NCBI RefSeq assembly: GCF_033153115.1 | Contig: NW_026889830.1 | Span: forward strand, 1,240,001 to 1,304,000 | Direction of reading: 5' to 3' | Length of the DNA: 64,000 bases | Origin: Saccostrea echinata | Taxonomy: Eukaryota | In this document: in pieces, positions 17,863 to 25,206 of the stretch | Position numbering within the stretch: the first letter of the stretch is position 1 | Layout of the letters: every line of letters starts with the position of its first letter | The notes under the pieces: generated by a model | Databases searched by the model: none | Seen by the model: only the letters and a program-made list of their open reading frames with translations | Told to the model about the DNA's origin: nothing | Made by a program: the position numbers and the translations under genes

Positions 17863-20800
17863 ATGCAAAAACTATCCACCACTATATTTTTAATGTGCAT
17901 GCCCTTTATCATCTTCCCAAAGGGTAAGTGAAAAGATTTTTACCTTGATCACTACATTATCTTAAATAATCATTTTTATTATATGTTATATATGAAATCG
18001 ATCACAGTGCGTTATCTTTACCTTTTTCATGTAATATTTTATAACTTTAGGTTGTGATGGACAGATCTGTTCAGACGCAAGTTTAAATAATTGTGGTGAA
18101 ATTTATCACACACGTAGAGTGGCATTTGGGGCGAGAACACAAGCTTGCAGGTTGTATTTTTCTTACAATTGCTTCGCTCTTGAAGATTGATTGTATGTTG
18201 TTTTACGTCCAATTCGAGAATTTTTCACTCGTATAGAGATGTCACCATGTACCGGTGAAGGGCTTCAAATTTAGACCTATGCTCGGCACTCAAGGCCATG
18301 GAGCAGTGAGGGTTCTTTGTCGAGCCAACACCTACCGTTACACGGGAACTCGATTTTTTAAGGTTTTATCCTAAAGACCCTGACTTTCACTTCTAGTGTC
18401 GGGCGCTTGGCGAAAGAACATTTACAACCTATGTTGATCAAGTTGAGCAGCAAACGAGAATGGAACCCGGGCCGGGCCTCCCATCACGAAGCGAACGCCC
18501 TACCACTAGGCTACCTTGACCGGTTGAGACAAGAAGAGCTTATGCGATATAGTAACGTGTACGTCGTCCGTTCGTCTTTCGGTCTGTAAACAATTTTTAA
18601 AACGCTACTCATACTGCGATTTGGCCTGAATAGAAGATTGCAGTAAGGTACATAATTTTAAATATCGGTTCATGATTTCGATTATAGGTGTTGCCATGCT
18701 TACTTGTAATAGAAATTTTTGAGAGCTACTTTCAAAACGCTGCTCCTCCTTCTGTTTTGGTAAGATTTTGATAAACTTGGCAAACAAATAGATTACACTA
18801 AGATAAATAATACCTTATATTGTTTTTGTTTTATTTTGATGAATGGTGTTGCCATGGTTATTAGAAATAAAAAAAAATCCGAGAAATACTTTCAAAATGC
18901 TACACCCTCCTACTGTTTAGTCAGATTTTAATATAACTTTGGCATACAAGAAGACTAACTACTTATAATACATAATTCTGTTTCTGTTTTTTATTTTGAT
19001 AAAAGGTGTTTCCATGGTTACTAAAAAATAGACATATAGGTGAAATACTTAAAAAAGACCACTCCATCAACAGTGTTCGTCCGATTGCATAAATCATGTT
19101 GCGCATTTTCCGGTCACGTGATAATTGAAAAGTTAAGTATGCACTACCCCCTTTTAAATATTCCTGGAGTAGACATTTTTATAGGTGGAAAATGGATTTT
19201 TTTAACCGTCAAAATCGTAAATGAAATAGGATAAATATGAATAAAGACAAATTAACAAATTTCAACGTACTATTTTACAGAAAATGGTATTTCTTTTATG
19301 CGAATGTTTTTTTAAGGTGTGACATTTTTCTGGTGTTTTACATGTTATTTTTCTTTAAAAGAGGATGAAATTAACTTATAAAATGTAAACAAATTCAGAA
19401 AGTTTTAAAATCATAATTAATTGACAGTTTGTACATAAACTTTATAATCAATATTTAACATTTTCTTTACAAAAAATGCAAATAAACGCCAAAACGTTCA
19501 TATACAAGTATATGCAATATATTTTCATCAGTAAGGTTATGCAACTACATGTTTTAATAAAATGTACCTTAATATCATCAAATTGAATTTTTAAAAAATG
19601 TCTTGAAATAACAGAAAAATCGGTACGATTATAAACTAAATGAACATTTTACATACATAAATAAAAAGTTTCTATAAAAGCATCATATTGTTACGGAAGC
19701 CGGTAGATGCAAGGTAAGAAAAATATTTTTCTCCCGGCCACCAAATAGTTTTCCTGCGGCCACCACATAAATAACTGGTGGCTGCCAGAAACTTATCTGG
19801 CGGCCGCCACATAAATAACTAGAAGCCGCCAAATAAGATTCTTGCGGTGTAGACTTATAATCTCATAAAACATAAACTTAAAGTTATGAAGCGAAGACTT
19901 ATGTAGTGAATTTTTGTATAAAGTATAGATTTGATCTTTGCTAATAAGGCATGAAACTCCCAGATTTGACTACAAACAGAAGTCGTAGATGTCTTTAAAT
20001 CAAAAACACTACAATTTTATCTGGCGGTCGTCAGATAATATATTCTTTTCCTAGCACCTACGGGCTTCCGTATATAGCAATGTATTTGATATAATTTTAA
20101 TTACAATCAAAATATTTTATCATGATACGTAATTATGTGAATAGCCAACTGATGGAAAAATCTACAATGCACTGAGTGTTTCCTTTTCATTATGAAACTT
20201 AGAAGTATTTGCCCATATAGAATTGCGTTATGTTTTCATCATAACCGAGAGAATCCCAGCCAGGACTAATTTCCTCTCGCTTCCCAACTCTCCATATAGA
20301 AGTTGATTCACCAACTCTAGTCACTTTTCATTNNNNNNNNNNNNNNNNNNNNNNNNNNNNNNNNNNNNNNNNNNNNNNNNNNNNNNNNNNNNNNNNNNNN
20401 NNNNNNNNNNNNNNNNNNNNNNNNNNNNNNNNNNNNNNNNNNNNNNNNNNNNNNNNNNNNNNNCTGTTCGAAATACATGTGTAAACGCCAAAGATGCGTT
20501 TAATCCTTAATCCTGCAGAAATATGCGCCTCAACATCCAGACTTACAACAATCCATGTTCCCTGTATCAACCACACGGGAATATATGTGCGCTTCTCTAG
20601 CATGTTAGAGCGTGGATGTCTATTAACAAGAAAGTCAAAAATAACTATGTATGATAAAGTGGAGTTGTTCCCAAACTTAATTTTTGTTCAATCAGTCGAA
20701 AAATGTAAGGAAGTTCCAGCATCTGAACCATGTTTAGTAGTGTGCAATCCTAGATGCATCATCGGTGCAAGTTGGGTCACGATAGAGCTTATAGTTGCAT

Positions 20801-23800: not shown

Positions 23801-25206
23801 TAAAAAAAAAAATATTTTCAGGTCTGGACGATATCCAAATATGGAAGTGAAGAACGATAACCGTGAATAGCTATAAATACACAGAATAAACAAGGTGTTA
23901 ATCCTTCTGACCAATCAGATAACGGCATTGAGACAAACTCATGAGAAAATAAATAAAACACGTGGTTTTAAAGTTTTTTGTTCAAAAGATTTCTAAAGAA
24001 CAAACTTTTTGTAAACTTTGTGCACATTTAGCAATGATACAGTATATATGACAATTCTACCGTGAACAAACACGACTTTAAAGCTTAGAATAAATTCACT
24101 ACGAGGTAGCAATCCCAAAAGTTTAACTTGTGTTAAGAAATTTGATATAAATACGGCAGATTTTCAGTTTTGAAGAGTCTGATATGAAAATGTTTTCGTA
24201 TGAAAATATAACAGTCTTAATTATTCCCTGAGTGTTTATCACAAAATCGTCCATGCAGTTTCTGGTATGCGAGGTAAGATATGGTGATAAAAAGCATTCA
24301 TGTACATTCCCTTTTCTCCACGTTTTTCACATTTCTTATGTCCATTTAAAGTGACACGTACATGTATATAACAAGGTATTGCGCGCTCATGAAACCCGTG
24401 TTATTTTAAAACTACATGTAGTCTATACAATGAACTTGTGTGCAATAGATCTATACGCAGGGAAACAACGCGTTATCGATGAAAATCGGACGGCTAAGCA
24501 AAATTATATTTACAAACATATAGTTTATGTTCTGGTATATACTGTACTTGATAATAGCTTGACAGTGTGGTCTATTCCTCTGTAAACGATCGCATTGTGC
24601 TACATGCATTAATTTTTTTTCTTTTCCGAGATGAAAATGTTAAGTTTGTTCACGGTAAATATGTGGGGAATACCTTATTCTTCAAAACTTCTCATCTTAC
24701 TTCTAAAGATTATTTGTCAAAAAAATAGTATTCAGTAAAAAAAAAAAAAAAAAAAAAGCACGTGTTTTCTTTTTGTTCCTCTGAAATATGTTTTGGGGTG
24801 TGTAAAAATGCTGTTGTCTGATTGGGCAGAAAAATATTTACGTATAAATGATGTATATTTATAGCAACTTTCATTTATCGTTCTTGACTTCCATATTTGG
24901 AAATCGTCCAGACCTGTGCTTCTTTTTCTTGCCTTGTCAATAATTTTGAAAAAGATTGTTGAGTTAGTGTGGGCAACACATTCTGGATCCGCGCATGTTA
25001 AATGTCCGGAAAAGAGGAGAATTTGTTAATAATGTTAATTGTTAATATTGACAAGCTAGTTGTTTTCATTGCTTTGTCATTAATTTGTAATTGATAAATC
25101 TTCTTTTTTAGTGGCATATAAAGTACCAGTAAATGGTGACGGAAGAGTGAAGACCAGTCTTTTGACATTAGCTGTAGCCTGTTTGTTTGTCTTTATACTG
25201 TATTAA
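17863..25206 (+). CDS. Small secreted GPI-anchored 6-Cys protein, neuritin/RGM-N-like Cys spacing, 129 aa; join(17863..17923,18051..18150,23415..23548,25112..25206)
   Basis: All introns GT-AG with compatible phases (1,2,1); 390 nt, no internal stop: MQKLSTTIFLMCMPFIIFPKGCDGQICSDASLNNCGEIYHTRRVAFGARTQACSGTTSQIACIHEVIAHCILKPNDPESRRVKNLGLFKLNTFKQMGCVAYKVPVNGDGRVKTSLLTLAVACLFVFILY; hydrophobic N- and C-termini; AATAAA at about 25236; exon structure mirrored by the paralogue. Intron 2 spans an assembly gap. Confidence 0.88.
18184..18525 (-). mobile_element. Meta/Deu SINE variant (family C head)
   Basis: Family A body and tail with the head gaccggtcaaggtagcctagtggtagggcgttcgcttcgtg, as at 39158 and 44975. 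Confidence 0.8.
19692..20072. mobile_element. MITE with TIR tacggaagcc-gtag-tgc and TA ends
   Basis: tacggaagccggtagatgc ... gcacctacgggcttccgta; internal ggcggccgcca repeats. Confidence 0.7.
20333..20463. other. Assembly gap (131 N)
   Basis: Run of n. Confidence 1.
22560..22825 (+). mobile_element. SINE family A with internal deletion
   Basis: accgttcacggtagctcagtcgg head, caatcaatc tail. Confidence 0.85.
22856..23075. mobile_element. MITE with CCCTAACAAAAA termini and internal actatagt repeats (CMC/EnSpm-like)
   Basis: aa-ccctaacaaaaaaatacta ... tagtattttttgttagg-aa; second copy at 63033-63358. Confidence 0.7.

Follow-up and report, generated by a model that had tools for sequence, protein, structure and literature searches.

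A Four-Exon Gene and Its Decayed Tandem Copy

The window analyzed here, 64,000 nucleotides (nt) from the oyster Saccostrea echinata (assembly GCF_033153115.1, contig NW_026889830.1, positions 1,240,001 to 1,304,000 of the forward strand), contains a four-exon gene for a small protein with six mature Cys, a predicted signal peptide and a glycosylphosphatidylinositol (GPI)-type tail, together with a dead tandem copy of that gene. As judged from homology, on which the splice model rests, the gene is real. An earlier note, made from the letters of this stretch alone, had claimed four GT-AG exons joining in phase to 129 residues with six mature Cys at a spacing of 7-17-8-7-27, and both claims hold, down to the exon coordinates (Table 1). 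The joined exons comprise 390 nt, encoding 129 residues and a stop, the introns are all GT-AG with phases 1, 2, and 1, and the mature Cys lie at positions 27, 35, 53, 62, 70, and 98. The model is not a product of chance, since residues 1-128 of the spliced product align with XP_062620670.1, a 134-residue uncharacterized protein of Saccostrea cucullata (LOC134282277; 53% identity, pairwise E 3.5e-49) that is colinear with all four exons and has the same Cys spacing, and since exon 3 alone, searched against 1.84 billion representative proteins, retrieved this protein as its one match (E 5.5e-9).

Intron 2 is in phase 2, its donor standing directly after the codon of Cys53, the third mature Cys. 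This donor is weak (CAG/GTTGTA) and a second GT lies 3 nt downstream; the donor at 18150 is preferred because of the spacing in the homolog and the pseudogene. Splice sites at 18153, 23427, and 23545 were rejected, as they would break the spacing that both of these sequences keep. Among 16 nearby splice combinations giving more than 115 residues, the 7-17-8-7-27 spacing occurs only in the chosen model and in a variant whose last exon is 4 residues shorter. Contigs from four sequencing runs (presumably RNA; one study, two samples; 0.05 of words) are uninformative on expression: they fall on repeats within introns, and of the 84 joints, the 15 listed match no exon boundary. These contigs give good coverage of a repeat family with many dispersed copies of 200-350 nt (for example at 18185-18525 and 22560-22830). 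A tandem array of about 168-nt units occupies 2521-4950, and intron 2 contains related dispersed repeats (22.0-22.6 and 23.1-23.3 kb).

The tandem copy lies at 7030-10486, 11 kb upstream of the gene. Its three introns stand at corresponding positions and none of the six Cys is lost, which gives the gene model a second support, independent of the homolog. A functional upstream gene is ruled out by three in-frame stops and by the loss of the first acceptor in a deletion of about 33 nt. The mature domain is 43% identical between gene and copy, and a profile scan of the window in six frames found no third copy. Nonsynonymous and synonymous divergence between gene and pseudogene (dN/dS, 0.43/0.63) was left unused, as it rests on 47 synonymous sites, too few, and is mixed with neutral decay. 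The locus has seen tandem gene birth and death, with one copy intact and one dead.

A non-coding first exon probably precedes the four coding exons, because an upstream block and the acceptor-like sites before the ATG are common to both copies; outside the block, the flanks of gene and pseudogene have diverged. A consensus donor-like GTAAGT stands just before the block in the intact locus.

Table 1. Features of the gene and of its tandem pseudogene (positions in the window)
Feature	Position	Strand	Description
Coding exon 1	17863-17923	+	61 nt; most of predicted signal peptide; phase-1 donor; 60% identity to XP_062620670.1
Coding exon 2	18051-18150	+	100 nt; predicted G24/Q25 cleavage, Cys1-Cys3, predicted short helix and beta-hairpin; 53% identity to homolog
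Coding exon 3	23415-23548	+	134 nt; Cys4-Cys6, two long predicted helices; phase-1 donor; 55% identity to homolog
Coding exon 4	25112-25206	+	95 nt; linker, candidate GPI omega site G107 (or N106), hydrophobic tail, stop; 57% identity to homolog
Assembly gap within intron 2	20333-20463	.	131 N; homolog and pseudogene need no additional exon there
Candidate poly(A) signals ATTAAA, AATAAA	25230-25241 (starts 25230, 25236)	+	24-35 nt past stop
Two acceptor-like AG sites 5' of ATG	17821-17822, 17848-17849	+	retained in pseudogene; suggest upstream non-coding exon
Upstream block	15021-15202	+	common only to pseudogene locus, 72% over 189 nt; candidate promoter or 5' untranslated exon
Pseudogene counterpart of upstream block	5517-5694	+	sequence match to 15021-15202
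Pseudogene exon 1	7030-7090	+	in-frame stop at 7036
Pseudogene exon 2 remnant	7144-7232	+	stop at 7162; intron-1 acceptor and first exon 2 codons deleted
Pseudogene exon 3	9295-9428	+	in-frame stop at 9395
Pseudogene exon 4	10395-10486	+	encodes GPI-type tail

Signal Peptide, GPI-Type Tail, and Mature Chain

By simple hydropathy and omega rules, a signal peptide and a GPI-type tail are found in all three sequences (gene, homolog, and pseudogene), which bears out the GPI-type build, with its hydrophobic N terminus and tail, proposed in the earlier note. In each of the three, the omega-site rule predicts the removal of 22-24 residues; a polar spacer is followed by a hydrophobic stretch of 13-15 residues, with a mean hydropathy of 1.6-2.6, after which no cytoplasmic segment remains. 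The small-residue site that had been pointed out (N-G-D-G, residues 106-109) is present, as is the uncharged hydrophobic tail reaching the stop. The protein is therefore likely, as far as its sequence tells, to be GPI-anchored on the cell surface. Signal cleavage is predicted by rule between G24 and Q25, which would leave six mature Cys; Cys22 (−3) and Gly24 (−1) are kept in the homolog. The predicted mature chain of about 83 residues (25-107; 9 kDa) is basic, with 10 Lys and Arg against 5 Asp and Glu and an isoelectric point of 9.1, and has no N-glycosylation sequon.

An Unnamed Mollusc Family

Sequence comparison supports placing the gene product in a mollusc family without a name, whose members are small, secreted six-Cys proteins of GPI type. 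With the whole homolog as query, the two best matches by ESM features were unnamed mollusc clusters (0.94 and 0.91, with 51 and 66 members) of proteins of 115-129 residues. Together, the unnamed homolog, the Cys spacing, these clusters, and the GPI-type tails support the uncharacterized molluscan surface family that the earlier note had envisaged. The homolog resembles the window protein in its signal peptide, GPI-type tail, and equal Cys spacing, and differs in a longer Lys/Pro-rich linker before the tail; it has no function on record and is named in no paper found.

The homolog search that the note had called for yielded one unnamed S. cucullata protein and no second database homolog. Exon 3 had no further match at E ≤ 0.001 among the 1.84 billion representative proteins, and the one candidate among longer proteins was not upheld. 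XP_062620670.1 as query returned only itself among 11 candidates, and the family alignment, in which part of exon 4 is misplaced, returned only XP_062620670.1 among 99. None of 224 pattern matches in metagenome contigs was upheld, and among solved structures sequence comparison gave two chance matches (E 1.3-1.4) and a profile none.

Predicted Fold

For the mature domain of the homolog, the best AlphaFold model (predicted local distance difference test, pLDDT, 84.8; predicted template modeling score, pTM, 0.67) draws a short helix and two long ones, with a beta-hairpin in the segment from Cys2 to Cys3, and the protein is predicted on this model to fold as a three-helix bundle. From helix geometry, the disulfides may be Cys27-Cys70, Cys35-Cys62, and Cys53-Cys98, a pairing proposed because equal 7-residue gaps stand on two antiparallel predicted helices. 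Three-helix bundles, for example MIT domains (Z 6.5, root-mean-square deviation (rmsd) 2.7), can be superposed on about 60 of the model's 77 residues. The best matches in the VIA structure comparison had Z of 7.2 (rmsd 2.5, 64 aligned) and 6.9 (rmsd 2.6, 61 aligned), with none at 8 or above; three-helix bundle matches at such Z were counted as a common, generic arrangement. Neither PDB nor the viral sets gave a Foldseek match to the mature model at E ≤ 0.001. No RGM chain stood among the 50 structure matches listed, its presence further down not being excluded. In the Atlas structure search, made over predicted models, RGM_N was third of the best ten, with a template modeling (TM) score of 0.69 over 70 residues, below the naming bar. 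The helical bundle for which the earlier note had suggested a check is predicted, on the homolog; its matches are generic bundles and RGM_N stays below the bar.

Divergence and Kinship to Neuritin and RGM

We lean, by a modest degree, toward reading this 129-residue six-Cys GPI-type surface protein as a fast-evolving recognition ligand of the unnamed mollusc family, remotely related to neuritin (NRN1/CPG15) and the RGM N-domain. Between the oyster gene and its homolog, identity is 54% in the mature domain, 62% in the signal peptide, and 58% in the tail; the mature domain has changed at the pace of the signal peptide, in contrast to neuritin. Across the three sequences, 21 of 74 mature columns are invariant, 6 of the 21 being Cys, and in helix 2 only 1 of 13 non-Cys positions is. 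Recognition of a changing partner would be favored over a conserved growth signal, because the Cys frame is fixed and the basic surface variable.

Neuritin and its paralog NRN1L have six Cys, spaced 9-17-8-7-27 in NRN1L, and both NRN1 and NRN1L carry a phase-2 intron directly after Cys3; four of the five NRN1L intervals would equal the oyster ones, and that intron would correspond to oyster intron 2. Leaning on this spacing and intron position, remote common ancestry with neuritin and the RGM N-domain would be somewhat the better bet. In ESM features of the whole homolog, neuritin was the first named family (0.85 against the tool's bar of 0.9, with 152 of 256 features in common), and the ten best named matches all fell in the neuritin family or clan, as they do for a third of shuffled proteins. 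To the bolder version we give slightly less than even credence: an ancestral GPI-anchored six-Cys helical ligand with the post-Cys3 intron would predate the split of molluscs and vertebrates, would have been frozen in vertebrates, and would have radiated in molluscs as a large, fast-evolving surface repertoire missed by databases. The oyster protein is filed in neither the neuritin nor the RGM family, and the kinship is taken as a lead.

Several observations weigh against this reading. Pfam scans of the homolog, its mature part, and three of the four exons matched no family at E ≤ 10, PF15056 and PF06535 included, so that the check for NRN1 and RGM_N profiles suggested in the earlier note came out negative; these were scans of single sequences in which most matches above about 0.1 are filtered, and a remote relative may escape them. 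With the mature part alone (residues 25-101), the named ESM feature match disappeared and neuritin was lost. The AlphaFold models were made for XP_062620670.1 instead of the window protein, from an input alignment of five partial rows, and only one of the five mature-domain models was confident, the others reaching pLDDT of 58.0, 48.8, 48.8, and 37.8. A full-length homolog model (pLDDT 46.6) favors helix where the mature model draws the hairpin, and its fold searches were uninformative; hydrophobic periodicity is strand-like at residues 44-53 and helix-like at 36-45, the latter disfavoring the hairpin. As a single database homolog was retrieved, family size rests on the two Atlas clusters, and XP_062620670.1 may be a paralog rather than an ortholog, which would overstate the divergence. 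The signal peptide and GPI calls come from a simple hydropathy and omega-rule scan.

The accessible text of PMC7354924 describes the RGM N-domain as a three-helix bundle with three disulfides, in which BMP binding involves an RGD/RGN loop between helices 2 and 3 together with Leu and His. This loop is absent from all three sequences (gene, homolog, and pseudogene), and the neogenin-binding domain RGM_C (PF06534) is absent as well, the window protein stopping at 129 residues and the homolog at 134. The neuritin/RGM-N link drawn in the earlier note is weakly supported: the ESM match and the RGM_N fold match, both below the bar, speak for it, and the missing Pfam match, the loss of the feature match in the mature part, the absent BMP-binding loop, and a conservation much lower than that of neuritin speak against it. 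A literature search, part of which was diluted by loose term matching, found no report on an invertebrate neuritin or on the oyster locus in the accessible texts, and the accessible parts of PMC8075586, PMC12422955, and PMC9578707 hold nothing on neuritin evolution or fold.

Alternative Explanations

The alternative that survives best, which we nevertheless consider unlikely, is convergence: a lineage-specific oyster or mollusc family would have reached the common three-helix, three-disulfide scaffold, and the signal and tail would drive the neuritin score. In agreement with this, unrelated bundles reach scores no lower than that of RGM_N in the Atlas search (PMEI, TM 0.72; an AAA-ATPase cluster, 0.71), the 7-residue Cys gaps correspond to two helix turns and could come from geometry alone, the predicted hairpin is unmatched in the RGM-N description, and no named family matches the mature part by ESM features. 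The 17 and 27 intervals, however, are not set by geometry, yet would equal the NRN1L values, and in the two Atlas searches neuritin and RGM_N each rank at or near the top of the named secreted families; these searches are one source and both results stay below the bar.

It is rather improbable that the protein is the molluscan counterpart of neuritin, that is, a neural GPI-anchored ligand promoting neurite growth and synapse maturation, and a neuritin-like function is just as doubtful. Layout and size are alike, and neuritin leads the named ESM families, but PF15056 is not matched and the feature match goes once signal and tail are removed. Furthermore, the accessible text of PMC12877949 describes neuritin as conserved across vertebrates, with one paralog, and about 97% conserved between human and rodents, as against 54% between the oyster mature domains and 43% to the tandem copy, a comparison in which divergence times differ and the oyster pair may be paralogs. 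A printed mouse peptide in the accessible part of PMC10123642 has a Cys at residue 83; with this Cys set on Cys70, 3 of 18 residues (83-100) equal the oyster sequence by eye.

That the tail serves as an ordinary membrane anchor or stays unprocessed, leaving the protein tail-anchored or secreted instead of GPI-linked, is very unlikely. The GPI call by rule scan, with a single rule-conforming omega site in the window protein and Asp at omega+1, would allow it; against it, all three sequences have the small-residue cluster 22-24 residues from the end, the polar spacer, and the 13-15-residue tail, which is too short for a usual transmembrane helix and has no cytoplasmic end. Finally, an artefact, be it a silent copy or halves of two paralogs joined over the intron 2 assembly gap, is hardly credible despite the 131-N gap between exons 2 and 3, the weak intron-2 donor, and the dead neighbor, given that the frame is open, that splice sites and poly(A) signal are intact, that the four exons resemble the homolog evenly (60, 53, 55, and 57% identity), and that a profile scan of the window finds two copies only.

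Proposed Mode of Action and Significance

On the reading as a fast-evolving recognition ligand, the four coding exons would yield, as sequence and homology indicate, a precursor with six mature Cys and two hydrophobic ends. Cleavage would take place between G24 and Q25 and GPI transfer at G107 or N106, as the rules predict, and the protein would be displayed on the surface as a disulfide-braced three-helix bundle, predicted on the homolog. It could not signal alone and would have to act by binding, because it has no intracellular part. Binding would presumably involve the faces of the helices together with the basic hairpin, the target being a co-receptor, an anionic surface, or a partner carried by another cell. 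According to the accessible text of PMC6502786, neuritin acts by binding, whether anchored or shed, and the oyster protein might likewise be shed by a phospholipase.

The encoded protein belongs to a mollusc family of surface proteins that has no name and whose build resembles that of neuritin; the gene model is confirmed and the earlier interpretation supported in part. A mollusc branch, if true, would date the neuritin family to early bilaterians and tie neuritin to the RGM N-domain, and its variable natural versions would reveal the partner-binding surface of the fold. Mollusc neurons are a classic system for tests of synaptic roles. If the neuritin link fails, the family is one more unnamed GPI-type family, of a kind common in invertebrate genomes.

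Neighboring Genes and Repeats

A Pfam scan for neighboring genes covered 150 of the 239 candidate frames in the window. Two pacifastin and Kunitz inhibitor genes or gene parts lie on the reverse strand at 39964-40516 and 62129-63895 (Kunitz E 3.5e-16 and 4.9e-16; pacifastin E 3.2e-7 and 9.4e-4). A multi-exon fibrinogen-domain (FReD) gene occupies about 54100-58550 on the forward strand, with Fibrinogen_C at 56643-56822 and 58294-58524. Its region also holds a Cys-rich candidate exon at 54116-54424, which matched no Pfam family, and a short-period tandem repeat at 54847-55399 in which several frames are open on both strands. A 214-codon open frame at 29582-30223 (+) has a weak P2RX7_C match (E 0.002), below the cut-off.

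Comparison with Known Systems

The oyster protein resembles the RGM N-domain (RGMA/RGMB/HJV, PF06535) in its three predicted helices, with the TM score of 0.69 being one between predicted models. It differs in having neither the RGD/RGN loop nor RGM_C nor a profile match, unrelated bundles reach the same TM score, and the three-helix account of RGM-N in the accessible text mentions no equivalent of its predicted hairpin. From neuritin it differs in its first Cys interval (7, against 9), in the missing PF15056 match, in its fast-evolving mature domain, in the predicted hairpin, and in the intron after Cys6. The lengths of leader, mature chain, and tail are similar: the accessible text of PMC10123642 gives neuritin a 27-residue leader and a mature chain of residues 28-115, with the GPI tail removed, and the oyster protein has a predicted leader of 24 residues, a mature chain of 25-107, and 22 residues removed. 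Like neuritin, as described in the accessible parts of PMC10123642 and PMC6502786, it would be a small, GPI-anchored, sheddable protein.

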